The notes: generated from the letters alone by a model not told the origin. A DNA stretch of 40,000 nucleotides from Methanolobus vulcani (GCF_006546655.1 NZ_VIAQ01000007.1:4465-44464); one strand, 5' to 3'. Positions 14,115-32,925 are shown, numbered from the stretch's first letter. Translations and numbers: made by a program.

Positions 14115-14169
14115 AATATCATCTCATTAACATAAAGTATAAATAACGTTAACTCTAGTATATGTTTGT

Positions 14170-16230: not shown

Positions 16231-16316
16231 ACCTGCTATAATAAGACTTAAGTAACTTAATTGTTATTATCTGGTGTTCAAAACCACATGACCGGCATTC
16301 CACTACTATTCTAACT

Positions 16317-16400
16317 GCGAGGGTTGCCCAGCTGGTCAAAGGCGCCGGACTTAAGATCCGGTATCGAAGGATTTCGAGGGTTCAAATCCCTCCCCTCGCA
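16317..16400 (+). tRNA. tRNA-Leu (anticodon UAA), class II with a long variable arm; no encoded CCA
   Basis: Folded by hand. The acceptor stem is GCGAGGG/CCCTCGC with discriminator A. The anticodon stem is CCGGA/TCCGG with loop CTTAAGA. The variable region is TATCGAAGGATTTC. The T arm is GAGGG-TTCAAAT-CCCTC. Confidence 0.9.
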
Positions 16401-16410
16401 TCGCTTCTAA
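16397..16410. repeat. Left copy of the casposon target-site duplication (cgcatcgcttctaa, 14 bp; 15 bp if the next g is counted)
   Basis: An identical string is found at 29023-29036. The first 4 nt are the last 4 nt of tRNA-Leu. Confidence 0.85.
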
Positions 16411-16440
16411 GGGATATAGGTAACTCAGAAAAATGCAACT
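16411..16440. repeat. Left terminal inverted repeat of the casposon
   Basis: gggatataggtaactcagaaaaatgcaact is the exact reverse complement of 28993-29022. Weaker similarity continues about 10 nt further inward. Confidence 0.9.
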
Positions 16441-16540
16441 TTTAAAAATAAATTGGTGCTAAGTGACTATCTGTGCGAAGTATAAGAATTCTTTAACAAA
16501 AGAAAAATTATATCAGCTTTGAAGAAAGTATAGCTGTTTG

Positions 16541-19500
16541 ATGGCAGATAACGATGAGTTTAATGTTTCTACCGATAACGAGGATAGAGCACAATTTGTA
16601 ACAACTGCATTAAGTTCAGTGCCTTTTGTTGGTGGATTGATATCTGCTTCTGCAAACTACGTAATAAAAAAAAGACAAGACAAAAGATTGTCTGAAGCTT
16701 TAAACAAATTTATTACCAATAACATAGAAAAAAAGGTTGAAGATTCAGATTCTAAATACTTATCTCTTCATAATGACTATTTATCTCTTCAGGATGATTT
16801 TAGATCCTTTGAGGATAATTTTGATGAACTCAAAGCTGGCATTAAATCGATTGAATCACAAAACTTCGAAAGTGAGTATCAATATCTATTGGAATCACTT
16901 CGAGAAAACGTTAAGGAAAATAATCCTACAGAAGCTTTGAAGCGCCTTGGAAATCTAAAAAGTAAAATTTGGGATAAATCACCATCTAACATAAGATATG
17001 CTTTGTTATCTATTGAAGCATCAGCAAACTTAAAGTTAAATAGATATCAAGATGCAGGGAAGCTTTTGATAGAAGCTTTTCAATATAGTAGTATTGAAAA
17101 GGCTATGGTCAATGCTGCATACGGATATTTTTTATTGAATGATTATTTAAATTCAAAAAAATTAGTTGAAGAAGTATTGGAAAATAATCCCACTAATGCT
17201 CGCGCATTCTCGATTCTGATACAAATGTTTACAACTGAAGAAGAATTAGATGCTATTCCCGACTACTTAAAAGAAACACAAGATGTAGCTTATGCTATTG
17301 GAAACTTTTTTTTGAAGATAAACAAATTTGAAGAAGCAATAAAGTGGTTAGAAATAGCTATCGTTAATGAAAAAGAAACTATTATAGAAATGCGGCCTCT
17401 CTTAGCAAGCATTTTACTTGATATGATTTTGTCCGATTCAGAAAAAATTCAAGAATTTCAATTAAATGAAAAAGATAAGAATACACTTAAAAAAGTGATC
17501 GATCTGATTACAACCTCATGGAATTCCATTTCAGATCCAAATCTTCAGAAAATACATGTTGATTGGATAGTTAACAGATGTATTGCCAAACACCTTTTAG
17601 GTAATCAGGACGGTTTTAAAGATGATATAAATGATGCTTTTAAGTTCGATCCATCTGATTCAAGGATTATTTATTTTAAAGCTTTAATGGTACTAGAGCA
17701 CAATGAAATCGAAAAAGCTATTTCTTTACTAAAAGATATTGATTTTGACAAAACCATACCTGAAGTACCATTATTATATTTTGACCTATTAAGAAAACAA
17801 GGCAAATTTGCTGACGCAATTACTGAAATTAATGATTTTTTGGAACAAAATGAAGATTTCCAAAAAATAGATTTCCTCTATAGAATTCTTATTTATACAT
17901 ACCTCGACTCTGATGTTGAATCTGAAAATTGTGTTGAAAAAGCAATAGATCTAGCTGATAGTAGAGTAAAAGCCGATCCAACAAACATTGAAAACATAAT
18001 AGATTTGTCACAATGTCTGGCTAAATCCGGACAGATTGATTCGTCAAAGTCCCATCTAATCAATGCTAAAAATATTATTTCTGATTTTACCCCAACTATT
18101 CATTTAATGGAATTAGCAGATGTTTTTTTCAGATTAAATTTATTTGATGATGCATCTGAAATTTATCAAAAATTTGTTGACTCAACTCAAGTTACAGATT
18201 TAACTCACAAACTTGTAGAATCATATTACCGATGTGGGGATATTGGAAAAGCCCTTGAAATATCTAAATCATTAAGGGAAGAGTTCGGTATTATTGATCA
18301 TATTACAAATATTGAAATTGCAATATATCATGATATAGATGATCTTTCTGAGGCTAAAAAAGTTCTAACTGAATATATTTCCAAATATCCAGATGATATG
18401 GATATGAAATTGAATCTAGCTTATTTAAATCTTAGATGTAATAACTTAGGTGATGTCGAGAACTTTTTAAATACATCATTTGATATTAAGTCGTTATCTA
18501 TCGAAAATGGCATACGTTTAGCTCTTTTATTCAATGAAAGAGGATATTTCAAAGAAGCAATTGATATCCTATATGAAATACGGAGATACAATTTTGAGAA
18601 TGAGAATGTTCATGTCGCTTACATTAAATTAATTCTTTTTAATGAAAAAGAAGAGCGTGAAAATTGGTTATCCCCAGAAAAAGTAGATGCAAATACTGTT
18701 GTAATACTTGAAGAAGATGCAGGAAAACAAGTAACCTACATCTTAGATGATCGAAGTGATGTAGATTTCCAAAAAGGAGAGATTGGACTAGAATCCCCCT
18801 TAGCTAAACTTATTTTCGGAAAAACAAAAGGTGACAAGATTACGCATAAAACTTCTTTATCTCAAGAAATACTTGAAGTAAAGGATATTAAAAGCAAATA
18901 TATCCATGCATTCCAAGAGAGTTTAGATAAATTTAATTACCTATTTCCTGACACACAAGCGTTAACAAAAATCTCCTTCCCAAAAATTGAGGAGGAGGGA
19001 ATCCCTCAAGACTTCCTAAAAACTATTACTGATGTTGTAGTCTTAAGAACGGAAAATAATTCAAAAGCTATAGAATTATATCTTGATAAAAAACTGCCTA
19101 TTGGAACTCTTGCAACCATAATCGGCCAAACAATTTTTGATGTCTGGTTTGAATTTACAAAAAATGAAGATTTAGGAATTTATTGCTCAATTGGAAACAG
19201 TCAAGAAATCAATGAAGCTTTAAACAATCTTGAAAATAGTTCTAAAATTGTAGTCGATCCACTTTCTCTCATCACTGTTTTTACATTAAATATTGGAGAT
19301 TTAATTGTAGATAGTTTCGGCAAGTTAGGTATTGCCCAATCAACAATTGACTTACTTCATGAAACACTTATAGAACAAAAAAAGATTTATTCAAGAGTAC
19401 ATGGTTTTTTAGTAAATGATGATAAGAACCTCATTTTCAAAGAGACTGATTCAAAAGATGTTGAAGAAAAAATAAATGTATATGAACAAATGTTAAATTG

Positions 19501-20164
19501 GATTCCTAAAATTTGTGAAATTATACCATGCAAAGAAGCTCTTTCTCTTAAAAAAGATAAAAAGAAAGAATATGATGATTTACTTGGAAGAGCATTTGTT
19601 GATACTATTCTTATTGCAACCGAAAATGAGAATATTTTATGTACTGAAGATAAAGTGCTTCGTTCAATTGCTAAACAAGAATTTAATGTTGATGGGATCT
19701 GGACTCAACCTTTACTCTTACATTTTCTAAATAATGATATCATTGATCGTAACCAATATAACGAATTGACAATTAAATTGGTAAATTTGCATTATTACCA
19801 CACCACTATCAATTCAGAAGTTTTAGTAGAAGCAGCAAGAAAAACAAATTGGAAAATTGAAGATTCTCTTAAGAATTTTTTGAATATTCTTCGCGGAAAA
19901 AACTGTGATGAAGACTCTGCATTAGCTGTGAGTACGCATTTTCTTTCTGCAATTTGGAATGAAAAAATACCTAGAGAAGATTTGTATGTTCTAACTTTGA
20001 ATTTACTAAGTGTTATTGTTCAAGAAAGATTTGCACCATTTATTATCGATAAAATAAAAAATAGAGTTAATATAAACATCCATTTATTTTCTTCAGAAGA
20101 TCGAGAGGAGATCCTTGAATTAATTAGCTTATGGGAAGCTATTTACTATAAATCCATTTTGTAA
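16541..20164 (+). CDS. Giant cargo protein: N-terminal hydrophobic Gly-rich helix, coiled coil, long TPR array, GreA/B C-terminal-like domain, C-terminal PIN-like nuclease domain
   Basis: ATG at 16541. TPR-like repeats run through most of the length. The GreA/B-C-like block lies at about 18674-18900: VVILEEDAGKQVTYILDDRSDVDFQKGEIGLESPLAKLIFGKTKGDKITHK. The PIN-like block lies at about 19240-19700, with KIVVDPLSL (Asp1), LLHETL (Glu), and AFVDTILIATENENILCTEDKVL (Asp3 plus the T-x-D motif). Confidence 0.7.
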   Translation: MADNDEFNVSTDNEDRAQFVTTALSSVPFVGGLISASANYVIKKRQDKRLSEALNKFITNNIEKKVEDSDSKYLSLHNDYLSLQDDFRSFEDNFDELKAGIKSIESQNFESEYQYLLESLRENVKENNPTEALKRLGNLKSKIWDKSPSNIRYALLSIEASANLKLNRYQDAGKLLIEAFQYSSIEKAMVNAAYGYFLLNDYLNSKKLVEEVLENNPTNARAFSILIQMFTTEEELDAIPDYLKETQDVAYAIGNFFLKINKFEEAIKWLEIAIVNEKETIIEMRPLLASILLDMILSDSEKIQEFQLNEKDKNTLKKVIDLITTSWNSISDPNLQKIHVDWIVNRCIAKHLLGNQDGFKDDINDAFKFDPSDSRIIYFKALMVLEHNEIEKAISLLKDIDFDKTIPEVPLLYFDLLRKQGKFADAITEINDFLEQNEDFQKIDFLYRILIYTYLDSDVESENCVEKAIDLADSRVKADPTNIENIIDLSQCLAKSGQIDSSKSHLINAKNIISDFTPTIHLMELADVFFRLNLFDDASEIYQKFVDSTQVTDLTHKLVESYYRCGDIGKALEISKSLREEFGIIDHITNIEIAIYHDIDDLSEAKKVLTEYISKYPDDMDMKLNLAYLNLRCNNLGDVENFLNTSFDIKSLSIENGIRLALLFNERGYFKEAIDILYEIRRYNFENENVHVAYIKLILFNEKEERENWLSPEKVDANTVVILEEDAGKQVTYILDDRSDVDFQKGEIGLESPLAKLIFGKTKGDKITHKTSLSQEILEVKDIKSKYIHAFQESLDKFNYLFPDTQALTKISFPKIEEEGIPQDFLKTITDVVVLRTENNSKAIELYLDKKLPIGTLATIIGQTIFDVWFEFTKNEDLGIYCSIGNSQEINEALNNLENSSKIVVDPLSLITVFTLNIGDLIVDSFGKLGIAQSTIDLLHETLIEQKKIYSRVHGFLVNDDKNLIFKETDSKDVEEKINVYEQMLNWIPKICEIIPCKEALSLKKDKKKEYDDLLGRAFVDTILIATENENILCTEDKVLRSIAKQEFNVDGIWTQPLLLHFLNNDIIDRNQYNELTIKLVNLHYYHTTINSEVLVEAARKTNWKIEDSLKNFLNILRGKNCDEDSALAVSTHFLSAIWNEKIPREDLYVLTLNLLSVIVQERFAPFIIDKIKNRVNINIHLFSSEDREEILELISLWEAIYYKSIL

Positions 20165-20244
20165 TATTACTCATATATATTTAGAACTTAAATCATTGAA
20201 TTAACTTGCTAAAATAAAAGCGATCTCTTCCTTTAAAAATATTT

Positions 20245-22878
20245 TTAAGTAATTATTGATGCAATTCTTTTAATAGCTGGTGTATTAAGATTGATATCCT
20301 TATTCACCAGAATCCTATCCTTTATCCTCTTGAAAGTACCTCGATCTACTCCCCATTCTTCAACTTGTGATTGAGACAATTCAAGTATCTTTCTCATAAT
20401 ACATCCCTTGTAAATGAATACCTGTGAACGCTTAACATCTAGGGCCTGTTCATCAATGTTGTTGGCTTCCTTGCCAATGTAAACAACTCCATCAGCGTGA
20501 ACATGCTTTCTCTCAAGAACCCCAGTATTTCCATCGAACTTATGCTCAAGGTGTTCAGCATATTGCATTATTGTCTTGCTCAATGGCTTGAAATAACGAG
20601 ATCCTTCTTTGATTTCCCCTGTCTCATAATCAATGAATGGCTCATACACAGTCTTCTGAGAATCTGTAGAAAAAGGCATCAAAGGTTTTACTGCCTTCCC
20701 GTTTTCTTCAAGTGCCTGGAATCCTACAAGATAGAAATTGAAAGGCTTGATCTGGTCATTCCATTCCTTACCTGCATTGAATCCCTTGAACCTTCTCAGA
20801 ACATTTGGAGTTGAAACAGTTAGTCTTGAGATTGCATACAAACCTGAATATTTCTCTTCAATATCAATTCCTGAGATTATTCCATAATTCAATTTGAGAA
20901 GATCTTCCCATATCTCAGCCTGCCAATCATCAACAGTTTTTGGGAATGGATTTGTTAAATGCCCAAGTCCATGTAACTTGAAAGACCTCTCACCTTCCAT
21001 AAACTTGATTGTACCATTCTCATAAGTATAAAGGGCATATCGCTTAGAGGAAATGCCATAGAACCACATGTCTTCTTTTTCAGCCTTCAACAGATCAATA
21101 TCAAGGTTGTATGGGTTAAGAGGCTGGAAATAGTTTATGATCTCCTGGGCATGTTCAGGAGGAACAAAGATGGAATCAGTATCCATATATGCATGAACTG
21201 AACCCAACTCTTTTACTTTGGCTTCTGCCATTGCTAAGAATAACTTTGACCCTGCTGTAATCATGACAGCAAGCAAAGGATGGAAGTAATTGCCTGCTTT
21301 CTCAAACCTGTTCTCAGAGGTATTGAAGTCATCCAAACCATAAACCTGAATATCGCTTTTCTTATCCTCTGGATTAAGTTCAATGAAAATACCATAGCTT
21401 GTGGCATTAACAAGTATTTTGATAGCCTGTGCTCTGCTTTTCTCTTGTTGTTTGATTTTTTGCCTTTCCTGAACAAGTACCTGAACCAGATTGTCCTTTG
21501 AAGGATCAATATCAATTCCAAGTATCTGACTAGTCCTTAATCCCTTCTGAACACCCTTTGGAATATACTTGATAGCTTCAACGATCTTTGGAACTTTGCC
21601 TGTAAGAATAACTGAAGCTATAACATCAGGAAGAGCATACCACAATTCAGAATCAGAACTTAGATAATTAACCCCAACGTTATAGCCTGCTCCAGAGCCT
21701 TTGTAATCCATCCTTACAGGCAATATGTCATTGTCAGGTACAATCTTAACCATTACAACAAAATCTTTCCAGTTATCTTTATTTTGAAGATAATCAAGAT
21801 CCACTTTTGAGAGCATGTCCTTAATCTCATTAGTAACAACCTTCATCTCAAGGGATTCAGCAATCATGAACTTCCAGAGATCCATCATCATTGTAACGGT
21901 TGGATACATGCTTGTAAAATCAAGAACTGTGACCTTTGTTGGTTGTTTTCTAATCTTACATTCACACCTTCCACCATAATAAGAGGTCATGATGTTTCCG
22001 ATCATCTCTGAAGGAAATTCAGGATTTAGATCTAAAAACGATTGAATGCCCAGTTGTTTTAGAGCATGTTTTCCTATTGAAGCAGAACTGAAGATTCTGG
22101 TTGGTGGGATGTTTATTTGATAACGATCCAACTCATCAATGAGCTTTTCATAGACATGATATGTTGTTTCAACATCTTGAATTAGATAATCAATATATCT
22201 CTTGGTTACTTTACCATGTTCAATTCCCTTCATCTTTTTGATGGGAGTATTGAGCTTCTCACCTGCTTTTTCAAGTGAGATATGTTTTGATTGAAGAAGC
22301 ACCTCAGCCAGCTTTTGAGCATCAAGATAATATCCTGAAAAATACTCTTCACCTTTGTTCTCTTTGGTTGTTGTCAACTTGAAAGTATAGGCATCTCCCA
22401 TCTTTTTAACAATGATAGGAGGATTTAATTTGTTCTCTGAAAGAGTAAAAGTAAAACCACCTTTGTTTCTTCCTCTTGATTCTCCAACTCTTTTCGAGAT
22501 CTTACTGGTGTCAAAAGGCAGATTGAAACCAATACAAAGAGCATGCCTCCTAAATATTTCTGTGTAAAAAACATTATCTATAAACTCATCCAAAAGGTAA
22601 AGGGGAATTTCATTCATTCTTGCATAAGCTGAAAAAGCATTTTTCTCATTTTCAGTTAGCATTGAAGGATCATAGAACAATCCTTCATGCTGAATGTAGC
22701 CTTCCTTGTATATCTGAAAGAAGCCAATCTTGAAATTCTGATATTGATCTATTGTTGTTTCTGTATCAAATACCAAAACCCTATCATGCCTTAATGGGTC
22801 TTCTCTTGGTCTAAAGAAAGGATTGCCTGAAGATACCTTGACCTTCAGAGTATATCCCCTTACTGCAATGTTAGACAT
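20245..22878 (-). CDS. polB: Family B DNA polymerase of the protein-primed type, with a C-terminal HTH tail
   Basis: 877 aa. Exo I VLVFDTETT, Exo II GFNLPFD, Exo III YLIQDVETT, Pol A LDFTSMYPT, Pol B KILVNATSYG, Pol C YMDTDSI and KxY SKRYALY. The extra C-terminal ~50 aa read GVDRGTFKRIKDRILVNKDINLNTPAIKRI. Confidence 0.9.
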   Translation of the reverse strand: MSNIAVRGYTLKVKVSSGNPFFRPREDPLRHDRVLVFDTETTIDQYQNFKIGFFQIYKEGYIQHEGLFYDPSMLTENEKNAFSAYARMNEIPLYLLDEFIDNVFYTEIFRRHALCIGFNLPFDTSKISKRVGESRGRNKGGFTFTLSENKLNPPIIVKKMGDAYTFKLTTTKENKGEEYFSGYYLDAQKLAEVLLQSKHISLEKAGEKLNTPIKKMKGIEHGKVTKRYIDYLIQDVETTYHVYEKLIDELDRYQINIPPTRIFSSASIGKHALKQLGIQSFLDLNPEFPSEMIGNIMTSYYGGRCECKIRKQPTKVTVLDFTSMYPTVTMMMDLWKFMIAESLEMKVVTNEIKDMLSKVDLDYLQNKDNWKDFVVMVKIVPDNDILPVRMDYKGSGAGYNVGVNYLSSDSELWYALPDVIASVILTGKVPKIVEAIKYIPKGVQKGLRTSQILGIDIDPSKDNLVQVLVQERQKIKQQEKSRAQAIKILVNATSYGIFIELNPEDKKSDIQVYGLDDFNTSENRFEKAGNYFHPLLAVMITAGSKLFLAMAEAKVKELGSVHAYMDTDSIFVPPEHAQEIINYFQPLNPYNLDIDLLKAEKEDMWFYGISSKRYALYTYENGTIKFMEGERSFKLHGLGHLTNPFPKTVDDWQAEIWEDLLKLNYGIISGIDIEEKYSGLYAISRLTVSTPNVLRRFKGFNAGKEWNDQIKPFNFYLVGFQALEENGKAVKPLMPFSTDSQKTVYEPFIDYETGEIKEGSRYFKPLSKTIMQYAEHLEHKFDGNTGVLERKHVHADGVVYIGKEANNIDEQALDVKRSQVFIYKGCIMRKILELSQSQVEEWGVDRGTFKRIKDRILVNKDINLNTPAIKRIASIIT

Positions 22879-23212
22879 TTGTAGGCATCTCCATTACAAT
22901 ATCATCTAATCGATCTACAAGTTCTCTCAGTAGGGCTAAGAGTGAAATTGCATTAACCACCTTTTTATTTTCTTCAGATGCATCTTTGGATCTTACTTTA
23001 GGACTAAGCCTGTTCTGTTTTGCTGTAACCTTTGAATGACAGTTCATACAGAGTGGCTTGACCACATCTGAATTATTTCTGCCATCTACATGATGCATCT
23101 CAATAACTTTCTCATCGTCTTCTCCACATACAGCACATGCCATAGGTGGCTTCTTTCCTTTCTTATATCTGTTAATACTCTTACTGTAAGCTTCTTTATC
23201 CATAGTATCCAC
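22871..23212 (-). CDS. HNH endonuclease
   Basis: 113 aa. CAVCGEDDEKVIEMHHVDGRNNSDVVKPLCMNCHSKV gives CxxC...HH...N...CxxCH. It overlaps the polB start by 8 nt. Confidence 0.8.
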   Translation of the reverse strand: MDTMDKEAYSKSINRYKKGKKPPMACAVCGEDDEKVIEMHHVDGRNNSDVVKPLCMNCHSKVTAKQNRLSPKVRSKDASEENKKVVNAISLLALLRELVDRLDDIVMEMPTNV

Positions 23213-23215
23213 TCC

Positions 23216-23857
23216 TCAACTTTGATAAATATCCAAATATTCGGGTTCTTCCTGAGCCTCATTTATTTCATAAAGGCGTTCAAGATCTGTTACAAAGAAA
23301 TGTTTTGTACCATTTACATCGGTGATATGTATATCAATAAATCTTTTCAATAAACTTGAATCGCCGGTCTTTAAAGCTCTGTTAATTGCATTGAAATATA
23401 AACCAATTAGAGTTCTATCCTTTGAATTTGTGGTTACGATTGAAATTTGACCTGCATCTTTCTCATAGATGAGCATTTCAACTTCAATTCTATCTGTTGT
23501 GGTTACTTTCCATTTTCCTTTGGATTTATAGAGATATTTTCCAAGATTTCTGATTATGTCTTTCTTGTTAATTCCAGTCTTTTCAACAGCTTTGGAATAT
23601 GGTACCCCTTTCCTCATAAGCCTGAGAATTTGAAGGCTTAGTTTTCTATCCCGCTTTTGTTGTGAACTTAAACCGTTCCAAGAGCTTGTGCTTAAGTCAT
23701 GATCCTTAAGCCTGGTATTTCTCAGTTCGTTCAAGCTTAGGGTTGGAAATCTTTCATGGAATCGGATTATCCTTCTAGCATACTCAGAGCTTCTTGGTTC
23801 AGCCTTGAGCCATTCTCCATAAGTCTTGTATTCCTTTGAGAAGCGCTTGAGTGTCAT
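23216..23857 (-). CDS. Casposon protein of unknown function with a central HTH-like segment
   Basis: 213-aa ORF packed tightly between the RHH gene (ATGA overlap) and the HNH gene (3-nt gap). LRLMRKGVPYSKAVEKTGINKKDIIRNL looks like an HTH. Confidence 0.6.
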   Translation of the reverse strand: MTLKRFSKEYKTYGEWLKAEPRSSEYARRIIRFHERFPTLSLNELRNTRLKDHDLSTSSWNGLSSQQKRDRKLSLQILRLMRKGVPYSKAVEKTGINKKDIIRNLGKYLYKSKGKWKVTTTDRIEVEMLIYEKDAGQISIVTTNSKDRTLIGLYFNAINRALKTGDSSLLKRFIDIHITDVNGTKHFFVTDLERLYEINEAQEEPEYLDIYQS

Positions 23858-23994
23858 TTCTCAGCCTCCATGAGCCTGATGAATGCAATTCTCAACACTT
23901 CAGCCTGAGAACATCCGTATTCTTTCGCTTTCTGTACCAACTTACCCTTTAGATAAGGGGAAAGTGTAACCAATATTCTGGTATTCGACTTCAT
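23854..23994 (-). CDS. Ribbon-helix-helix (CopG/Arc-like) protein, 46 aa, below the ORF-track cutoff
   Basis: Hand translation gives MKSNTRILVTLSPYLKGKLVQKAKEYGCSQAEVLRIAFIRLMEAEK. This has a beta-strand then two helices, with the typical S/T-x-x-E-h-h-R pattern. Its stop overlaps the next ATG (ATGA at 23854-23857). Confidence 0.6.
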   Translation of the reverse strand: MKSNTRILVTLSPYLKGKLVQKAKEYGCSQAEVLRIAFIRLMEAEK

Positions 23995-24088
23995 ACAATA
24001 ATCAACATCATAGGAAAGAATATATACAGATTTGAAGTATAGTTTAATGTATAATTTGATATATTTGCCTAATAAGATTGGTGTATTA
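23995..24088. promoter_or_regulatory. Divergent promoter region between the replication module (minus strand) and the integration module (plus strand) of the casposon
   Basis: A 94-bp AT-rich spacer with several TATA-like strings (atatatacag, tttaatgtataatttgatatattt) lies between divergently oriented first genes. Confidence 0.3.
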
Positions 24089-24337
24089 ATGATTAAGAAT
24101 GAAGTAGATTTTAAGGTAAATACTGAAAATTACTTACACGAAAGTGGGCCTGTTAGGCGGGAGACTTTGATAAATCATCTAATAGAATCCAATGGCTATA
24201 GCAGATCTAGTATTGAAAGAAAGTTAACTAATCTAAAAAAGCAAGGGATTATTGTAACCTTGAAGACAACTGAAGATTTTGCTAGATTTGGTATAAAAGA
24301 AGAAGATAAGAGATCTGCATATAATCACAAGAGATAG
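24089..24337 (+). CDS. Winged-helix DNA-binding protein
   Basis: The in-frame ATG at 24089 lies inside ORF 24032-24337. GPVRRETLINHLIESNGYSRSSIERKLTNLKKQGIIVTLK is a typical wHTH with its wing. Confidence 0.55.
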   Translation: MIKNEVDFKVNTENYLHESGPVRRETLINHLIESNGYSRSSIERKLTNLKKQGIIVTLKTTEDFARFGIKEEDKRSAYNHKR

Positions 24338-24446
24338 TTTTGAAAGAAAAAGGCATATTGACAAGGTTTTTGAATACCTAGAAAATGGAGATGACATAGA
24401 CATAGAAACTGCGTTAACAGAAATCAGAAGATATGAAGAACGCTAT

Positions 24447-24986
24447 GTGATGGATTCAAAACAACTTGACAATTTAGTTACTATACTTTATGATAAATCC
24501 AATGTTAGAATTATAGATAATATTTTGAGTATTCTCTACAAACATATTATTGTAAAAGAAATACTCCCTTCTGATAAAGATAATTTACTGAAAGTTCTGA
24601 AAAAACTCCTATACAAATTCCCAGAAGCTCATCCAAATTATTCAATGATTAGGAGGCATATTCTTCGACTTCTTGGATATTATGAGGATTATGCTGTCGT
24701 TGAGCAATTAATCAAAGATACTGAAAATGGTAGATTACCACAATTCAAAAACGATTATTTGACTAATTTTACAACAAATATTATTGAAGTAGGCAGAATT
24801 GAACTATTCGAACTTGAAGTAAAGGTGAGAAAATCAGGTGATGAAAAGACAGCTGAAAGTTTGAATGAGATCAGGAATTACGCTATAGAAAATTTAAATG
24901 AATCTGGAATAAAAAACCCATTAGAAGCTATTAAGGGTGGAAATCTAAATATTCAATTTAGTGGAATCAAGGGGATCAAAAAATGA
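24447..24986 (+). CDS. Alpha-helical protein of unknown function, translationally coupled to cas1
   Basis: 179-aa ORF. Its stop overlaps the cas1 ATG (ATGA at 24983-24986). The reading frame is also open for 50 codons upstream, with no canonical ATG/GTG/TTG start there (see findings). Confidence 0.55.
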   Translation: MMDSKQLDNLVTILYDKSNVRIIDNILSILYKHIIVKEILPSDKDNLLKVLKKLLYKFPEAHPNYSMIRRHILRLLGYYEDYAVVEQLIKDTENGRLPQFKNDYLTNFTTNIIEVGRIELFELEVKVRKSGDEKTAESLNEIRNYAIENLNESGIKNPLEAIKGGNLNIQFSGIKGIKK

Positions 24987-26185
24987 AATTCCTTCTTCTA
25001 AACGGTCATGGAATCGACATGCGAGTAAATGGGGCTAAACTACACATTAAGGATGGAAGATTCTCAACAACTGATGAACCAGAGGAATATGTATTCTCTC
25101 CAAAGAGGATGGATGTTGATAGCATCATTATCTATGGTAAAAATGGAAATCTTACACTTGATGCCATCCGATGGCTCATTAAACATAATGTACAGATATC
25201 AATTCTCAATTGGGATGGAAAGTTATTGACAACAATGCTCCCTCCTGATAGCACTAATGTAAAAACGAAATTTGCACAATACCATGCATATGAGACTCAA
25301 GAGAATAGAATAAAGATAGCAAGGGCCCTAGTTGAGGCTAAAGTTGATAAATCAACTGTTGTGCTTGAGTACCTAAATCAACGTTATTCTACTGTTGATT
25401 TTGATTTATCAACGGATGTTGATAAGCTAAAGAAGGTCAACTCAATAGTTGAAATAATGGGTGTTGAAGGCGGTATTGCTTACAAATACTGGCATGAGTT
25501 CTCAAAGGTCATTCCTGAGAAGTATGATTTTGAATCTAGAATCGATTCGAGTCGGAGGGCCACAGGGGCAGGGGATATGGTAAATGCTATGCTAAACTAT
25601 GGTTATGCTTTGCTAGAAGCGGAATGTCTTAGGGCTATCAATGCTGTTGGCTTAGATCCTCATGTTGGTTTTTTACATGAAATGAATACTGGAAAGAACA
25701 GCTTGGCTTACGACCTGCAAGAACCATTTAGATTCCTTGTTGATCTAGCGGTTATCAACCTTGTTGAGTCTGAGAGAATGGAAAAGAAGGATTTCATCAG
25801 GACAGAGAATTATTCGCTCAAACTTAGACCTAGTGGAGCTAAGAAGCTAACTAAAGAGCTCAATCTATGGTTCAACAAGAGAGTTAGTTACAAAGGAAAT
25901 ATGACTATGTGGAGTTATGTTCTGTTCCTGAAAACTAGAGAATTGGCTCAGTATTTAGTTGGTAAACGTCAGAATGTTGATTTCATAAAACCACGATATG
26001 AGGCTAAACGACAGGACTCAAACGACATACGACAGAAGATATTGAGTATTTCTTATTCCGATTGGAAAAAGCTAGGTTTCTCTAAAGGTACGTTGCATTA
26101 TATGAAGAAAAATGCTAAGGCAGATAAGCCTTTTACTTTGAATGCTCATGTTAGGGAAAGGTTGGAATTATGGGAAGGATGTTAA
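24983..26185 (+). CDS. cas1: Casposase (Cas1-family integrase with a C-terminal HTH)
   Basis: 400 aa. The Cas1 catalytic-region motifs are GVEGGIAYKYW (Glu), DPHVGFLHE (His) and LAYDLQEPFRFLVD (acidic). The C-terminal extension is ISYSDWKKLGFSKGTLHYMKKNAKADKPFTLNAHVRERL. Confidence 0.9.
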   Translation: MKFLLLNGHGIDMRVNGAKLHIKDGRFSTTDEPEEYVFSPKRMDVDSIIIYGKNGNLTLDAIRWLIKHNVQISILNWDGKLLTTMLPPDSTNVKTKFAQYHAYETQENRIKIARALVEAKVDKSTVVLEYLNQRYSTVDFDLSTDVDKLKKVNSIVEIMGVEGGIAYKYWHEFSKVIPEKYDFESRIDSSRRATGAGDMVNAMLNYGYALLEAECLRAINAVGLDPHVGFLHEMNTGKNSLAYDLQEPFRFLVDLAVINLVESERMEKKDFIRTENYSLKLRPSGAKKLTKELNLWFNKRVSYKGNMTMWSYVLFLKTRELAQYLVGKRQNVDFIKPRYEAKRQDSNDIRQKILSISYSDWKKLGFSKGTLHYMKKNAKADKPFTLNAHVRERLELWEGC

Positions 26186-26203
26186 TATTAAAAAATAATA
26201 CTA

Positions 26204-26701
26204 ATGTATATGAGATTCAAAGAAGAATATTTCTTTTGTAGTCCTAAGTTGCTTAGAAACATCCCAGAAGTAAATGAAATCTTTGAATGCATAAAAGCTG
26301 TTAAATGGCAACCCGAGTTTAAGCTGGAAGACAAAAATCACCAATCTGCTTATAACAAAGCTTTTGAACAGGAATTTTCTAATTATCTTTGGTCTAATAA
26401 ACCATTACTTAATGACAATCCAAAATTGATTGGAGACTTTCAGAAAAACGATGTTTTTGTTGAAATTCAGTTTGGAAATAGTGCTACTATTTATCGTGAT
26501 TACTATAAATTCCATTATGGGCTAGCAAATAAACTACTATCTTTAGCAGTATTGATTGTTCCAACAAACCCAAAAAAGTTTTTTCCAACTCGAAAATCAA
26601 GTGTCAGTAACATGGCAGAATTTGATTTTGCTTACAAATACTTCAATTTACTTCCAATTCCTGTTCCTATATTATTGATAGGATTACTGCCTGAAAATTG
26701 A
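26204..26701 (+). CDS. BglII-like restriction-endonuclease-fold protein with no partner methyltransferase
   Basis: 165 aa. GDFQKNDVFVEIQFGN gives D-x8-E-x-Q, the spacing I remember for the BglII active site (Asp84, Glu93, Gln95). Confidence 0.45.
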   Translation: MYMRFKEEYFFCSPKLLRNIPEVNEIFECIKAVKWQPEFKLEDKNHQSAYNKAFEQEFSNYLWSNKPLLNDNPKLIGDFQKNDVFVEIQFGNSATIYRDYYKFHYGLANKLLSLAVLIVPTNPKKFFPTRKSSVSNMAEFDFAYKYFNLLPIPVPILLIGLLPEN

Positions 26702-26714
26702 TAACATTCTCCAA

Positions 26715-26885
26715 ATGTCACAAAAAGAAGCGGAAGCTCTAGGAGTTTCAAGGAGCAGGTTTCAGGGAATCAAGCAAAGAATAAGGGAAAATAGAGATAT
26801 CAACTTGAATACTCCGGCAGTGAGGAGGTTGGTAGAGTATATTTATCCATTAATTGAAGTGGGGTTTAATTGCGTTAATTTGTAG
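26715..26885 (+). CDS. Stand-alone 56-aa HTH protein, paralogous to the PolB C-terminal tail
   Basis: Hand translation gives MSQKEAEALGVSRSRFQGIKQRIRENRDINLNTPAVRRLVEYIYPLIEVGFNCVNL. Compare the PolB tail SQSQVEEWGVDRGTFKRIKDRILVNKDINLNTPAIKRIASII. Confidence 0.5.
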   Translation: MSQKEAEALGVSRSRFQGIKQRIRENRDINLNTPAVRRLVEYIYPLIEVGFNCVNL

Positions 26886-26921
26886 GTATAAAAAAGGAAA
26901 TAGAAACAATATATACTTTCT

Positions 26922-27404
26922 TTAGGAATCTTTAAATTCTATTTTCGTACTTGGGATAACATCATAGTTATTAGTGTCTGTTGTAATATCGGTTATTTCT
27001 ACGTTATCTGACCCTTCAACAATTAATGTAATCGAAGTTTTCTCTTCTGGATTAAGATTCTTAATGAATACTTCCGCATAATTTCCATTTCCACCTAGTA
27101 TTGTTACATCAGCACTTCCGTATTCTGAAACATTGGTAATGTACCCATTCGTATGTATTTCAAAATAGACATGTTGCGCAATTCCATCGCCTTTATTCTT
27201 CAAATAAACAGTAATGTCATATGTGTCTGGGGATATCTCTTGTGTTGAAGATGTAAATAATAAATCTGGGTGAGGAGCAAAAAAACCTGCAATAGCCTTT
27301 GCTATAAAGATGACAGAAACCCCTATGATAATACCAATTATTAATGTCTTTGTTGTAGATTCACAGTTTTTCTGATTAGACTCCATTGCTATACAGTAGG
27401 ACAC
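26922..27404 (-). CDS. N-terminally membrane-anchored beta-rich protein
   Basis: 160 aa with one TM segment (LIIGIIIGVSVIFIAKAIAGFF). An alternating-pattern beta-rich ectodomain follows (ITVYLKNKGDGIAQHVYFEIH, ITLIVEGS). Confidence 0.5.
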   Translation of the reverse strand: MSYCIAMESNQKNCESTTKTLIIGIIIGVSVIFIAKAIAGFFAPHPDLLFTSSTQEISPDTYDITVYLKNKGDGIAQHVYFEIHTNGYITNVSEYGSADVTILGGNGNYAEVFIKNLNPEEKTSITLIVEGSDNVEITDITTDTNNYDVIPSTKIEFKDS

Positions 27405-27549
27405 TTAATATATATATTTATCTTGTGAAATGATAACATGAGGGAGTCGATTTCGGAAAATTAGCAAATGATAGAGAGAATTGAAAAAAATCCGAATTTG
27501 CATACTTCAGCAGTTAACGAAATAGTTAATCGTGCTAATTAAAAATAGT

Positions 27550-28815
27550 TTAATCATTCAGTGAATGTTTATTTTTGAAATCATATATTGAAACCAAATG
27601 ATTGGGGCTGACAGACTTAGCAATCTTCTCATTGACTGTATTATTTTGCATATCTATTATTGTATCAGAAAGTTTTAAACCTAGACTCGCCAAGAGTCCA
27701 GAACCTAATACACCTTCAGCAACCCCTCCTATCAAGCCTAAACTTAATGAAATTCCAAATTTAATTCCATCAGCTCTCCTAGTTATTTTCCTGGAGTCAT
27801 TCCAAACATTCTCAAGTATCTCTGACATATCTCCACTTTTTTCCTCAATGATATCTGTTTTATTTCTTTTTACTCCTTCATTGAGGGAATTTACTATTTT
27901 GTATAAATCTTGATCATCATATTCTTGAATCACTTTTGTGCATCCGCTTATTGTCTCGGGATATAAAGTTATTTTATTCAAAAGAAATTTTCCAATCTCA
28001 GGAGGAACAGAAGAAGTATTAGGCTCACAATCAAATTGTTTTTCTAAATCATTTACATAACCCATGAATTTTTCTCCATAATGACATATAGGCTTCAATA
28101 AACATTTTTGAGGGTTTGATATTAAAAAACCGTATACTGTAAGGTATAAATGAGCTTTTTCAGGATCTATAATCATTAAAGTTCCAATTTCATCAGCCAG
28201 TTCCTCGTAACCGCTGGCTTTAAGGATACTATAACGACTAGCATAATCTTCTAATTTTGCTAAAGTATATGATATATTACTATTTCCAAATGCACCTGTT
28301 GCGTCCATTACAAACTTATTAAAACCATGCTCAGCTAGGGTTTCAAATTCAATTTTGTTTTTTTTGTCCAATTCGTGACCAGTAACGGATAATGAATCAT
28401 ATTGAACAATTGGTGGTTTGAGTTCAGTAAGTAATGGCTCAAGAAAATCCAGATTTTTATAATAGGTAGGAGGCATCATGAGAACAAATTGTATTCGTCC
28501 TGTTTCTTTTTGAAAATCTATCATTTCATCAATTTTATGGGAATTAAAACCCATTGTAAATTCGTGAGTTTTATCAAAAGCTTCTTTGTTGTCTTTAGGG
28601 ATTAACTTCGCTAATGTTGAACCATAAAATGGAACAACACCCCATATATTAGTATAAGGGTCTGCAATTGGTTCTTTCAACTTAATGAACCTATTTTTAG
28701 GTGGATATCTTTCATTTAGTCCTACTTTTCCCTCATCTAGTCTTGTGATAAAACGAATGGTTTCTTCCTTTTCATGAGCCTCATAATCTTGAAGGAACTC
28801 TTCAAAAGTATTCAT
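27550..28815 (-). CDS. Cargo protein of unknown function with a C-terminal glycine-zipper segment
   Basis: The probable start is the ATG at 28815 (MNTFEEFLQ), inside track ORF 27550-28890. The C-terminus has GIKFGISLSLGLIGGVAEGVLGSGLLASLGLKL (GxxxG repeats). Confidence 0.55.
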   Translation of the reverse strand: MNTFEEFLQDYEAHEKEETIRFITRLDEGKVGLNERYPPKNRFIKLKEPIADPYTNIWGVVPFYGSTLAKLIPKDNKEAFDKTHEFTMGFNSHKIDEMIDFQKETGRIQFVLMMPPTYYKNLDFLEPLLTELKPPIVQYDSLSVTGHELDKKNKIEFETLAEHGFNKFVMDATGAFGNSNISYTLAKLEDYASRYSILKASGYEELADEIGTLMIIDPEKAHLYLTVYGFLISNPQKCLLKPICHYGEKFMGYVNDLEKQFDCEPNTSSVPPEIGKFLLNKITLYPETISGCTKVIQEYDDQDLYKIVNSLNEGVKRNKTDIIEEKSGDMSEILENVWNDSRKITRRADGIKFGISLSLGLIGGVAEGVLGSGLLASLGLKLSDTIIDMQNNTVNEKIAKSVSPNHLVSIYDFKNKHSLND

Positions 28816-28992
28816 ATTAGGTAAATAGAGTTTATTGCATAAAAATCTTGTATGGGTAATAATTATTATTTCGATTTTCAAACGAAACAATTAAAATTTA
28901 AAATATAAGTTCCGTTTTTTTGTGTTAACTATATCCCTAATCTAAAATACTAAGGGTACAATTCGAACCTTTTAAAATACAATTCTTAAAAG

Positions 28993-29022
28993 AGTTGCAT
29001 TTTTCTGAGTTACCTATATCCC
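28993..29022. repeat. Right terminal inverted repeat of the casposon
   Basis: agttgcatttttctgagttacctatatccc is the exact reverse complement of 16411-16440. Confidence 0.9.
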
Positions 29023-29036
29023 CGCATCGCTTCTAA
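29023..29036. repeat. Right copy of the target-site duplication
   Basis: cgcatcgcttctaa is identical to 16397-16410. Confidence 0.85.
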
Positions 29037-29154
29037 GGGATATAGGTAACTCTGATTTTTTGTACGCTAGTCCATTTTGGACTTTAATGAAAATACATAC
29101 GGTATATAATTTGATGAGGTAAATTTTAAATTTTTAAAAGCATTCATTAATGTG

Positions 29155-30165
29155 ATGTTATATGCCAATACTAAAGATGGGGAGAAAATAAGAGCCGCTA
29201 AAAAAAATAAGAGTGAAGAAATAAAGGCATATTGCCCTCTTTGTGATTGGCCAAAATGTGAAAAGCCTTTAGTTTACAAGACTGGTGAAGTTAATATCCA
29301 TCATTTTGCTCACCCAGAAGGCACAGAATGTTCAGATAAGTGGAGCAGGGGTAAAGAATCAGAATGGCATTTGGGTTGGAAAAATTTAGTCAACAAGAAA
29401 TATTGTGAAGTTCCAATTGTAAAAGGCTGGAAAAAACATCGAGCCGATATACAAAATAAAAACGGGTTAGTTATAGAATTACAAAACTCTCCCATATCAG
29501 TTTCTGAAATTCATGAACGTGAAGACTTCTACAACAATATGATTTGGTTAATTAACGGACAGGAAAAAAGAATTATTGTACATTCACCTGATTCTTATTG
29601 TGGTAGCGGTTATTGGCCAGATGACTGTAATATGATAATATGGAAGTACTCAAAAAAGGCAATACTTGAAGCTAAAAAAAGAATATTTATTGATATAGGT
29701 AATGAAGAAATATTATATATAGTCAAAAATGTCAATGGGTCATATTACTCTGAAACTAACGAAGGAAATAGGTTTGGTGGCTATTTAATCAGTAAAACTG
29801 ATTTTGTTGATTATTTTTTAAAGGCTAAAAACAACTCTGTTTTTGATAATATTCAGAAGAGTATGCTAGAAGGCAATGGTTGGTATTTAGAACATCTTAA
29901 ATTATTCGAAAAGTATTTTCATTGGTTACTAAAAACAAAAACTCATTCTAGCTTGCGATATAGGGTAAATGAAGAAGAAATGTTTGACGACTATTTTATT
30001 GTTGATGACTATAAATCACCTCGATTTTTGATTGATTTGACTTATTTCATTGTAGAGCACCCTGAATATAATGACAAACGGTATTTATTATTCAAAACTA
30101 TAAAAACTGGTATAGAGTTGGGCTGGCACGATGCTATGAGAGATGGTACATTAAAGTATGCATAA
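29155..30165 (+). CDS. CoiA-like PD-(D/E)xK nuclease-family protein with an N-terminal zinc ribbon
   Basis: CPLCDWPKCEKPL...HHFAH, then SEWHLGWKNLV...KKHRADIQNKNGLVIELQNSPISVSEIHEREDFYNNMIWLING. This matches the H..K, R-x-D and hE-h-Q-x-S pattern of CoiA-type proteins. Confidence 0.55.
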   Translation: MLYANTKDGEKIRAAKKNKSEEIKAYCPLCDWPKCEKPLVYKTGEVNIHHFAHPEGTECSDKWSRGKESEWHLGWKNLVNKKYCEVPIVKGWKKHRADIQNKNGLVIELQNSPISVSEIHEREDFYNNMIWLINGQEKRIIVHSPDSYCGSGYWPDDCNMIIWKYSKKAILEAKKRIFIDIGNEEILYIVKNVNGSYYSETNEGNRFGGYLISKTDFVDYFLKAKNNSVFDNIQKSMLEGNGWYLEHLKLFEKYFHWLLKTKTHSSLRYRVNEEEMFDDYFIVDDYKSPRFLIDLTYFIVEHPEYNDKRYLLFKTIKTGIELGWHDAMRDGTLKYA

Positions 30166-30170
30166 TCAAT

Positions 30171-30440
30171 TTATTTTATTTCACCAACCCATTTCAAAAA
30201 AAATACAAAGCCAATAAGCAAATAAGCTCCCACTTCTCCTTTATTTGACAACCATTCAATAATACCCAACCACCATGGAATTTGACTTTGGGCTGCTAAT
30301 TCAACGCTTGTTTCTATATTTTCTTGACTGGGTTCATTAATAGCCTTCAATGAAAATATCCCAATCTTTAATAACAGAGGTAATACAAACACTGCAAATA
30401 TAATAATTTGAATTGTTTCCTTGTTCAAAAAATCTGGCAT
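30171..30440 (-). CDS. Small membrane protein
   Basis: 89 aa with two or three hydrophobic helices (IQIIIFAVFVLPLLLKIGIF, AYLLIGFVFFLKWV). Confidence 0.4.
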   Translation of the reverse strand: MPDFLNKETIQIIIFAVFVLPLLLKIGIFSLKAINEPSQENIETSVELAAQSQIPWWLGIIEWLSNKGEVGAYLLIGFVFFLKWVGEIK

Positions 30441-30474
30441 TTATTTCTCCACAAAAAGCTAAAATTCTTTAGTA

Positions 30475-31341
30475 TTATGAAAATTTGACAGTTGCAGTCT
30501 TTGTTTTATTCCTTTTTTTACGGAGATTTCCTTCAAGCACTAACAATGAAACACCAAAAGAGTTCAAATCTTGTTCAAACTGGTTGTAAAATTCAGAATT
30601 AATTTTTCCTATATCAAGGACAACTAGTGAAATATTAGGATAGTGTTTGGCATAAGTATGTAATTGACCTAAAGAATTTCGAATATGTGTCTTGCTATTA
30701 CCAATCTTCAGTTCTAATGCTACTGTATTTATATGATTTTCAAGTACAATATCTATTTTATCATTAAACTGTCCACATTCAACTTGTCGATGGATGTTCC
30801 ATCCATTCTTACCATATGTGAAGTTCAAAAGAGAAGAAAGATGACTTTCAAACTCATATTCGTCAATAACTTTTAAGGAATTATCAAACTCTTGTGATAT
30901 TGTGCAAAGCACCGAATATAATATTTCTTCATCTGAAGAAAGTTCGGTTGAGATTTCCGTTTGAGGTCTATTATTTTGGGAGACATTAGATACAATAGCT
31001 TTATTATTTTGGTTTGATTCACTTATTAAATCTGAAACATTAACTTTTCGTTTTTTGAGATAATTTATTATTTCCTCATAACTTAAGTTAGATCTTATGG
31101 AAATTATATAATCATCTATGGTTAACTTGGGAACTTGTTCATCATCAAATACAAATTCATGAGATGTAACTTTAATTCCATAATTTTTTGCCATATATTG
31201 AAGCTGCCTCAATGTGAGTCGACGCAATGCTTTTGTTTTATTTCTTTTTAGCTCTTCACGTCTTTGTATTTCATCGGTTACTTTACCAGCACCCTCTGCC
31301 ATTTTTTGTGCACCCTTTTTTACAGCATCCCATAAAGCCAC
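30475..31341 (-). CDS. SAP-like N-terminal domain fused to a PD-(D/E)xK nuclease-like C-terminal domain
   Basis: 288 aa. LRRLTLRQLQYMAKNYGIKV is SAP-like. The C-terminal KIDIVLENHINTVALELKIGNS gives D...E-x-K. It lies directly downstream of the truncated cas1 on the same strand. Confidence 0.5.
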   Translation of the reverse strand: MALWDAVKKGAQKMAEGAGKVTDEIQRREELKRNKTKALRRLTLRQLQYMAKNYGIKVTSHEFVFDDEQVPKLTIDDYIISIRSNLSYEEIINYLKKRKVNVSDLISESNQNNKAIVSNVSQNNRPQTEISTELSSDEEILYSVLCTISQEFDNSLKVIDEYEFESHLSSLLNFTYGKNGWNIHRQVECGQFNDKIDIVLENHINTVALELKIGNSKTHIRNSLGQLHTYAKHYPNISLVVLDIGKINSEFYNQFEQDLNSFGVSLLVLEGNLRKKRNKTKTATVKFS

Positions 31342-31444
31342 AATATCACTTCTATAAAAAGTTCGTTAAATATAAATCGTTATTACAAATTGATTATATC
31401 TTACTTAAATTTTTATATTTATTCTACGTGTCTATATCAGAAGT

Positions 31445-32338
31445 TTACATAGATTCTTCCCACATCTCCAACCTTTCCCTCACATGAGCGTTCATAGTAA
31501 ACGGTTTATCCGCTTCAGCATTTTTCTTCATGTAGTGTAATGTACCCTTAGAGAATCCCATCTTCTTCCAGTCTGAATATGAGATACTGAGTATCTTCTG
31601 CCTAATATCGTCTGAATCCTGTCTCTTAACAACATAAGCAGGTTTACTAAAATCAAGTGTTTTTCTTTTACCAACAAGATACTGAGCAAGCTCCCTAGTT
31701 TTCAATAACAAAGCATAACTCCACATAACAGACTGCTTCTTGTATGGAACTTTCTTGTTCATCCAGTCATTAAACTCTTCAGTCACTTTCTTAGCTCCTG
31801 AAGGTTTAAGCCTGAGTGAATAGCTCTCAGTCCTGATAAAGTCTGTATTATCCATCTTCTTGGACTCAATAAGGCTGATTACAGCCATATCAACAATGAA
31901 TCTAAAAGGCTCTTGCAGATCATAGGCAAGACTGTTCTTGCTAGGATTCATCTCATGTAAAAATCCTACATGAGCATCAAGACCGGCCGTATTAATGGCT
32001 CTCAAGCATTCAGCTTCAAGAAGAGCATAACCATAATTAAGCATAACATTAACTTTGTCTCCTGCTCCTGTTGCTCTCCTGTATTGGTCTATCCTAGAAC
32101 AAAAATCATATTCATCAGGAATAGCTTTATTGAACTCGTTCCAGTACTTCCAAGCAACTCCGCCTTCGATACCCATGATTTCCTTGATAGAATTAGCAGA
32201 CTTCAGTTTTTCAATATCCTCTGTGAAATCATAATCTATTACAGGATATCTTTGTTTCAGATAATCAAGCACTACAAGAGATTTGTCAAACTTAGCCTCG
32301 ATGAAGTTCTTTGCTATCTTGACCCTGAGGAGGTTGAC
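31445..32338 (-). pseudogene. cas1: Casposase (cas1) lacking its 5' third
   Basis: The track ORF 31445-32272 aligns to residues ~125-400 of the intact casposase (GIEGGVAWKYW, DAHVGFLHE, LAYDLQEPFRF, SISYSDWKKMGFSKGTLHYMKKNAEADKPFTMNAHVRERL). Similarity continues upstream without a start (..LLRVKIAKNFIEAKFDKSLVV) to about 32335 and then ends abruptly. Confidence 0.75.
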
Positions 32339-32340
32339 CT

Positions 32341-32460
32341 GAAATGAGATTCTCTAAGGGTACTCTGCATTACATGAAGAAAAACGCAAAGAGCTATAAA
32401 CCGTTTACATTGAATATACATGTTAAAAAAAGGTTGGATATGTGGAGTAAGTTGCTTTGA
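32341..32460 (+). pseudogene. cas1: Isolated 3' fragment of a third cas1 (last ~37 codons)
   Basis: Translation gives EMRFSKGTLHYMKKNAKSYKPFTLNIHVKKRLDMWSKLL*. Compare the C-terminus of the intact casposase, LGFSKGTLHYMKKNAKADKPFTLNAHVRERLELWEGC*. Confidence 0.7.
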
Positions 32461-32662
32461 CACATTATTCGGGCACATACGAACATCTTTATATAGTATC
32501 CGAACATAGTACGTCTGCTTTTAGAGGCTGAAACTACTTTGATAATTATAGGTCTAGATGGTATTACCTTAACTGTATTTACTGTTTTTTCGTATCTTTA
32601 ACCAAATGGTTGTATTCTTTTTGAGCTAATACTTAAAGGACGTGAAATATTTGTTTAATAAC

Positions 32663-32854: not shown

Positions 32855-32885
32855 TTTTTGTACTTAAAATTCATTTAATTATACA

Positions 32886-32925
32886 GTAGAAAACCAAGAA
32901 ATTGGTTTCTACTTCACTTTTTTTA
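32886..32925 (+). terminator. Hairpin plus T-run terminator after the TRAM gene
   Basis: agtagaaaacca pairs with tggtttctact (11 bp, one bulge), followed by tcacttttttta. Confidence 0.5.

Follow-up and report, generated by a model that had tools for sequence, protein, structure and literature searches.

A family 2 casposon at tRNA-Leu of Methanolobus vulcani carries the known pair of helix-turn-helix tails and a probable relic of a second casposon polymerase gene

The window analyzed here, i.e., the whole stretch of 40,000 nucleotides (nt) of Methanolobus vulcani DNA (GCF_006546655.1 NZ_VIAQ01000007.1:4465-44464), contains at positions 16411-29022 a family 2 casposon located at a tRNA-Leu gene, within a tandem array of casposon remains. 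The element encodes a family B DNA polymerase (PolB) and the casposase Cas1, both of which end in a domain of the helix-turn-helix (HTH) type; downstream of cas1 lies an open reading frame (ORF) of 56 amino acids (aa) that resembles the end of PolB. The principal features, including terminal inverted repeats (TIRs), copies of the target site duplication (TSD), and matches to a hidden Markov model (HMM) of the HTH domain, are as follows.

16316-16402 (+): tRNA-Leu(UAA), identified by ARAGORN; integration target of the casposon array, with the TSD overlapping the tRNA 3' end
16395-16410: TSD copy CTCGCATCGCTTCTAA, preceding the left TIR
16411-16443 (+): type 1 TIR at the left end of the resident casposon, inner motif AAAAATGCAACT; 32/33 positions complementary to 28990-29022
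20245-22878 (-): PolB, 877 aa; Pfam DNA_pol_B_2, E 7e-13
20257-20394 (-): C-terminal HTH tail of PolB, type B (GVDRGTFKRIKDRI); HMM match E 6e-21
24983-26185 (+): casposase Cas1, 400 aa; Pfam Cas_Cas1, E 3.5e-70, residues 16-293
26033-26176 (+): C-terminal HTH of Cas1; HMM match E 4e-24
26693-26885 (+): PolB 3' relic, tail type A (GVSRSRFQGIKQRI); PolB-derived homology from 26693/26703 to about 26855
28907-28937 (-): internal right-end TIR (TIR'), type 2, inner motif AAAAACGGAACT
28990-29022 (-): outer right TIR, type 1, then a TSD copy CCCGCATCGCTTCTAA at 29021-29036

The resident element, about 12.6 kb long, directly follows tRNA-Leu(UAA), carries 33-nt inverted repeats at both ends, and lies between two copies of a 16-mer, C(T/C)CGCATCGCTTCTAA, that agree at 15/16 positions. 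Its gene order is a 1208-aa protein, PolB (-), a putative HNH ORF, two small proteins, two HTH-type proteins, Cas1 (+), a BglII-like ORF, the 56-aa ORF (+), and ORFs of 160 and 446 aa (-). A Cas1 with a C-terminal HTH, a PolB with a C-terminal HTH, and TIRs with a TSD at a tRNA 3' end place it in family 2. The resident PolB is 82% identical to Methanococcoides casposon PolBs and 56-82% identical to the PolBs of known casposon hosts such as M. burtonii, M. psychrophilus, and Methanosarcina; overall, the closest PolBs (82%) and Cas1 proteins (83%) come from Methanococcoides, Methanolobus, and metagenome contigs.

The original prediction held that one HTH module occurs three times at this locus, in segments of 30 aa that align without gaps. 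The positions and sequences of these segments in PolB (20263-20352, -), Cas1 (26075-26164, +), and the small ORF (26742-26831, +) were confirmed, and shuffle tests and hhalign support both the gapless alignment and the homology. PolB and the small ORF share 18/30 residues, so that their likeness stands while the proposed figure of about 50 percent has to be raised to 60%; identities are 8/30 for Cas1 and PolB and 7/30 for Cas1 and the small ORF. Local alignment of the PolB tail with the small ORF scored 113 (shuffled, 21±4; 113 reached in 0/2000 shuffles), of the Cas1 tail with the PolB tail 58 (shuffled, 21±4; 0/2000), and of the Cas1 tail with the small ORF 37 (shuffled, 19±3; 1/2000). A profile-profile comparison of 113 PolB tails with 108 Cas1 tails gave an hhalign probability of 98.1% (E 1.3e-13) over 47 gapless columns, and still 96.5% (E 1e-9) when two Cas1-like PolB tails were left out. 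Being short (30-48 aa) and basic, the segments might owe their likeness to chance or to the composition of Lys/Arg-rich helices, but the shuffle tests and the hhalign E value of about 1e-13 reject such an explanation, and PolBs with Cas1-type tails do exist (P0109, P0120); its probability is negligible. The Cas1, PolB-tail, and small-ORF segments are homologous HTH modules. The tail is also nearly universal in other casposon PolBs, being present in 113 of the 120 homologues listed. While the module is indeed repeated, its count of three was too low: the HMM scan yields five copies, since a truncated Cas1 and a bare Cas1 HTH stub are also present.

31445-32272 (-): N-terminally truncated Cas1, 275 aa; Pfam Cas_Cas1, E 4e-46; intact HTH at 31457-31600, HMM match E 3e-24
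32350-32448 (+): isolated Cas1 HTH stub FSKGTLHYMKKNAKSYKPFTLNIHVKKRLDMW; direct repeat D1, 77%; HMM match E 4e-13; tblastn match to Cas1 residues 364-398

The domain comprises about 48 aa in four helices and ends both the casposase and PolB. An AlphaFold2 model of the PolB tail, based on an alignment of 48 sequences, has a predicted local distance difference test (pLDDT) value of 95 and features helices at residues 2-6, 10-15, 20-32, and 41-50; the HTH is formed by the helices 10-15 and 20-32, which are joined by a W-G-V-D turn whose Gly is invariant in the 48 sequences. In a sequence search of the PDB, the HTH profile had a single relative, the M. mazei casposase 6OPM, to which it aligns at residues 368-415 (E 3e-20). 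Pfam matches of the PolB tail to HTH_23, HTH_28, HTH_29, and psq were all below threshold, and a Foldseek search of the PDB with the 51-aa tail model returned nothing at E<=0.001, the domain being too small for an informative outcome.

The 56-aa ORF (26715-26885, +) had been regarded as a small accessory factor. Its ATG corresponds to the conserved internal Met of the PolB motif "ILQMSQ," and the PolB-like match begins 5' of this ATG, at 26693-26703, continuing in frame as "LKIDNILQ|MSQ" and overlapping the stop codon of the BglII-like ORF. At the DNA level, PolB 3' ends in 15+ loci of other genomes match the segment with 76-87% identity, compared with only 67/117 identical positions (57%) for the tail of the resident PolB; an origin by local duplication of the resident tail was rejected on these figures. 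At the protein level, its identity is 80-90% to the tails of PolBs that are full-length and belong to another lineage (P0036; P0050 of M. psychrophilus; P0045 of M. burtonii), and near-identical tails also end the full-length PolBs P0029, P0032, P0044, P0083, and P0095.

The 19 database homologues of the ORF are all small (41-96 aa). Their start is not conserved and lies between 0 and about 85 residues upstream; in 8/19, an N-terminal extension "...YIGKEANNIDEQALDVKKAQEFVNKQEIMDNILQ" before "MSQ..." is the PolB sequence found just upstream of the tail. Among 16 loci retrieved via this family, 12 contain a PolB 3' stub (the last ~35-125 codons) with a right-end TIR within 0.7-3 kb. Among the related stubs, that of L016 carries a frameshift, that of L011 forms a fusion with another gene, that of L009 follows a complete PolB, and a further one is without the invariant Gly. 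When 1.84 billion representative proteins were searched with the HTH profile, most matches were 40-140 aa long; by BLASTP, 139 of the 145 new short ones match C-terminal regions of PolB or Cas1, the remaining 6 being PolB-type tails by eye, and there was no separate family of stand-alone HTH proteins among these 145. Judged from these comparisons, the 56-aa ORF is a 3' stub left by a second polB gene, which belonged to another casposon lineage, and not an independent gene, and we infer that it has no function of its own. The proposed accessory factor is thus not supported, since homology crosses the ORF start, the homologues are PolB fragments, and no distinct family was seen among the 145 short proteins; recognizing the relic prevents a false annotation as an accessory protein.

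The surroundings of the stub point in the same direction.

26204-26701 (+): BglII-like restriction endonuclease ORF, 165 aa; Pfam Endonuc-BglII, E 6e-10; directly 3' of cas1
26922-27404 (-): cargo ORF, 160 aa; absent at the syntenic locus of Methanosarcina sp. WH1
27550-28890 (-): cargo ORF, 446 aa; in convergent orientation to the PolB stub; no Pfam match

With its stop codon, the BglII-like ORF extends into the beginning of the PolB-derived segment and therefore marks the rearrangement junction; it has no DNA match in about 100 related loci and no adjoining methyltransferase gene. The block of stub, 446-aa gene, and TIR (window positions 26693-28937) recurs in Methanosarcina sp. WH1 and in an uncultured Methanolobus, where the 446-aa gene is 83% and 70% identical at the DNA level, respectively (L001 10237-11675 and L013 10078-11392), and in each of these cases the gene adjoins a type-A PolB stub. 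Together they are a casposon end spreading across genera. TIR' lies 52 nt inside the outer right TIR and is of a different sequence type, being identical to the left TIR at 26/31 positions; it is 89-94% identical to TIRs of the loci L003, L005, and L019, and the TIRs of L003 and L005 adjoin type-A PolB stubs.

A further claim was that Cas1, PolB, and the small ORF recognize one and the same DNA element, most plausibly the TIRs, so that replication initiation would be coupled to integration. All three are indeed homologous HTH modules, the ORF is intact with its HTH residues conserved, and PolB tail type tracks the inner TIR motif (see below); moreover, Hickman et al. 2020 (PMC6977970) found the casposase inactive without its HTH. 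The recognition helices differ, however, reading SKGTLHYMKKNA in Cas1, DRGTFKRIKDRI in PolB, and SRSRFQGIKQRI in the ORF. The Cas1 helix (FSKGTLHYMKxNA) is nearly invariant across elements with differing TIRs and constant across six types of inner TIR motif, whereas PolB tails are hypervariable. In about 100 homologues each, identities of tail and core are 0.38 and 0.65 for PolB compared with 0.68 and 0.65 for Cas1, and PolB pairs more than 80% identical in the core have tail identities down to 11%. Because it is far more divergent than the core, the PolB tail is seen as a module that is mosaic and can be swapped, with at least six types. In the structural study of the casposase (PMC6977970), the HTH was disordered in the crystal, no binding to DNA was seen for the Cas1 HTH on its own, and the authors proposed recognition of the target leader (the sequence upstream of the target site) and not of the TIR. 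Furthermore, the type-A tail of the ORF matches the orphan TIR' (CGGAACT), not the functional outer TIRs of the resident element (TGCAACT), and its homologues have variable N-terminal PolB remnants. A genuine accessory protein sharing one element with Cas1 and PolB is therefore very improbable. The Cas1 HTH is conserved and, according to the literature, essential for integration; by the comparisons above, the Cas1 and PolB HTHs probably do not read the same site.

Tails of Cas1 type (ISYSDWGKLGYSKGTLH...) or of chimeric composition were observed among P0109, P0120, P0308, P0325, and P0331, and some stubs combine a PolB-type first half with a Cas1-type second half or end in the "LE.WEG" of Cas1. 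These Cas1-like and chimeric PolB tails suggest that the regions coding for the two HTHs have undergone recombination or gene conversion with each other.

As for PolB alone, the part of the claim that concerns the TIR fared better. The TIR adjoining each PolB 3' end was compared with the type of the tail, and Mantel tests were run on TIR positions 15-32. The pairs of tail helix and inner TIR motif were as follows.

Type A: helix GVSRSRF(Q/H)GIK, inner motif AAAAACGGAACT; 13/15 distinct cases, including the stub of the window with TIR'
Type B: helix GVDR(K/G)TF(Q/K)RIK, inner motif AAAAATGC(C/A)ACT; 5/5, including the resident PolB with the outer TIRs and two Methanoregula-like elements
Type C: helix GIKHRSALAYLKKKA, inner motif TTTTTTGTACGC; 3/3
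Type E: helix GIAYRGTLKRIQ, inner motif AGATACTCA; 4/4
Type F: helix G(I/V)(K/M)HRSTLKRMKDRI, inner motif CGCAACGC; 5/5

In the Methanoregula-like type-B element that was measured (L026), PolB is 56% identical. Wherever both ends of an element could be identified, they carried the same inner motif; no TIR was found in a search of L014 and of the Cas1 side of L024. Among 14 curated elements, distances in TIR positions 15-32 correlated with those of the PolB tail (r 0.62, p 2e-4), compared with r 0.24 for the PolB core and r -0.10 for the Cas1 core. In 38 nonredundant pairs, r was 0.46 (p 3e-4) for the tail and 0.17 for the 70 aa just upstream of it, with partial correlations of 0.44 for the tail given the upstream part and 0.04 for the reverse. 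When 29 long PolBs were used, the values were 0.40 for the tail and 0.26 for the upstream 70 aa, and the partial correlations were 0.34 (p 2e-4) and 0.13 (p 0.08), respectively. The outer 14 nt of the TIR, on the other hand, follow PolB phylogeny (r 0.50). For the Cas1 tail, r was 0.33 (p 0.08) in an underpowered comparison (n=10) with some dubious TIR assignments. These correlations provide a lead, being suggestive of a PolB tail that tracks the subterminal TIR motif beyond PolB phylogeny, as would be predicted were the polymerase to recognize the TIR through its tail, and on this ground the PolB HTH would most likely tether the polymerase to the ends of its own element.

In linear elements with TIRs, such as adenovirus and phi29-like phages, replication proteins recognize origins located at the TIRs, and the replicase is guided to sequence motifs within these repeats; by analogy, motif and protein module would be expected to covary. 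Unlike these replicases, the PolBs of family 2 casposons are not known to be protein-primed. A tentative extension is that the PolB HTH may serve as an exchangeable specificity module that reads TIR positions of approximately 15-32, so that the polymerase of each lineage would replicate only ends bearing its own motif. The conserved HTH of Cas1 would then recognize a feature shared by all lineages, and surviving PolB stubs such as 26715-26885 could be decoys at the orphan ends cognate to them. The pairs would be GVSRSRFQGIK with CGGAACT (A), GVDRKTFQRIK with TGC(C/A)ACT (B), and the motifs TTTTTTGTACGC, AGATACTCA, and CGCAACGC for types C, E, and F, an assignment we hold equally tentatively. 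A literature search found no paper proposing a link between PolB tail type and TIR motif. Were it to hold, this relation of tail type to TIR motif would account for the way in which self-synthesizing transposons guide their polymerase to their own ends, and for the avoidance of cross-replication among coresident casposons of one array.

Taken together, the locus is best read as the known HTH pair of a family 2 casposon, accompanied by a 56-aa ORF that is the relic of another lineage's polB; the PolB HTH is a swappable module most likely tethering the polymerase to its own ends, and the two HTHs probably read different sites. We assign this reading a probability of roughly 0.85. On this reading, the relic comprises the final ~45 codons of another polB, whose tail was of type A and which came from a different casposon lineage, and it survives together with the PolB-side end of its parent element (stub, cargo genes, and TIR' at 28907-28937), now joined 3' of the resident cas1; TIR' is the cognate end of that parent. 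Since polB and cas1 are transcribed outward, their HTH-coding 3' ends lie nearest the TIRs, and stubs of this kind are to be expected: such ends would remain after an interior deletion or an exchange of ends.

Several points weigh against this reading. We can only infer the exact rearrangement that joined the two elements, either a nested insertion or a deletion between inverted neighbors, and a search of the window for a TSD partner of TIR' (the 16 nt after 28937) gave no convincing second copy. The covariation of tail and TIR is moderate and comes from 29-38 nonindependent elements, and it could also have arisen through inheritance of tail, cargo, and TIR as a block, with crossovers in the conserved "IGKEANNI" stretch. 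The reading frame of the relic and all its conserved HTH residues are intact, and stubs (n=20) show no excess of changes at invariant sites over full-length genes (8/300 and 5/170, respectively), so that decay of the stubs is not demonstrated.

The absence of an excess of damaging substitutions would also fit a stub that is a relic by origin and has been kept as a decoy or repressor, only binding DNA at the type-A subterminal TIR motif in the manner of truncated-transposase inhibitors, which would favor the resident element or tame competitors. Small type-A stub proteins (20) outnumber full-length type-A tails (11) among those retrieved, and each stub has retained the cognate TIR in its vicinity. 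Since the HTH itself served as the query that retrieved the stubs, however, their conservation is partly a matter of ascertainment; start, promoter, and gene boundary are not conserved among them, stubs of the Cas1 3' end occur just as commonly, as simple terminal survival predicts, and one stub is frameshifted and another has lost the invariant Gly. Retention as a decoy is accordingly improbable, and survival of a terminal polB fragment remains our preferred explanation.

Regarding the other genes of the element, the 1208-aa cargo protein (16538-20164, +) combines TPR repeats with the C-terminal domain of GreA/GreB and with a PIN domain of the "PIN-TPR-GreABC" type (Pfam PF20698, E 2e-21), and is predicted to be a conflict or defense-type system carried by the element. 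The ORFs 22871-23212, 23216-23857, and 24447-24986 occupy the positions of the conserved HNH and HTH genes between polB and cas1 and have homologues placed likewise in other casposons, with Pfam matches below threshold (HNH, E 0.014). Just 5' of tRNA-Leu, there is an IS200/IS605-type pair (13881-15291), in which the Y1 transposase is truncated (77 aa, -) whereas the TnpB/Cas12f-like ORF is full (373 aa), with OrfB_IS605 and Cas12f1-like TNB domains.

Beyond the right end of the resident casposon, the array continues with a further element.

29037-29069 (+): left TIR of the next, degraded tandem element, inner motif TTTTTTGTACGC; the same motif accompanies type-C PolB tails

In all, this casposon "graveyard" (16316-33925) contains left-end-type TIRs at 16411, 29037, and 33056 and right-end-type TIRs at 28937 and 29022, belonging to three sequence types (TGCAACT; CGGAACT/CCGAACT; TTTTTTGTACGC), as well as a degenerate inverted sequence at 33896-33925 that resembles the tRNA 3' end and a TIR. 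An ORF of 70 aa with a TRAM domain (32642-32854, +; Pfam E 2e-18) lies between casposon fragments and may be a trapped host gene. In a Methanoculleus casposon (L025), the DNA outside both TIRs (6095-6163 and 14185-14253) forms a 69-nt inverted repeat that is 88% complementary; the flanks are therefore inverted copies, unlike a simple direct TSD.

The likeness of the Cas1 and PolB HTHs, of which the original prediction knew no earlier description, is explicit in Krupovic et al. 2014 (BMC Biol 12:36, PMC4046053), where Cas1 is reported to end in a conserved HTH and PolB in "a similar HTH domain," and again in a 2023 review (PMC9939771). The pair of HTH tails is a known signature of family 2 casposons and not new, and its rediscovery adds nothing to the 2014 paper; the role of the casposon HTH domains is acknowledged as unsettled by Béguin 2019 and Hickman 2020. 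The family 2 gene set of PMC4046053 (PolB, HNH, two HTH proteins, Cas1, TIRs, TSD, and tRNA target) matches that of the window, where the HNH and the two HTH proteins are putative counterparts, and for both full-length genes there is no difference; that paper does not discuss the variability of the PolB tail, its relation to the TIR sequence, or 3' stubs. The tRNA-Leu arrays of Methanosarcina mazei (Krupovic et al. 2016, PMC4779613) likewise consist of tandem and degraded casposons that share a single tRNA-Leu target, their genes being fragmented and additional TIRs present. In the passages of that paper considered here, HTH stubs of PolB or Cas1 are not singled out as mini-ORFs, and its host belongs to a genus different from that of the window, whose closest PolBs are those of Methanococcoides. 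The element of the M. mazei casposase (6OPM; PMC6977970) and the casposon of the window both reside at tRNA-Leu and share the same CGCA-initiated TSD and a "GGGATATAGGTAAC..." TIR.

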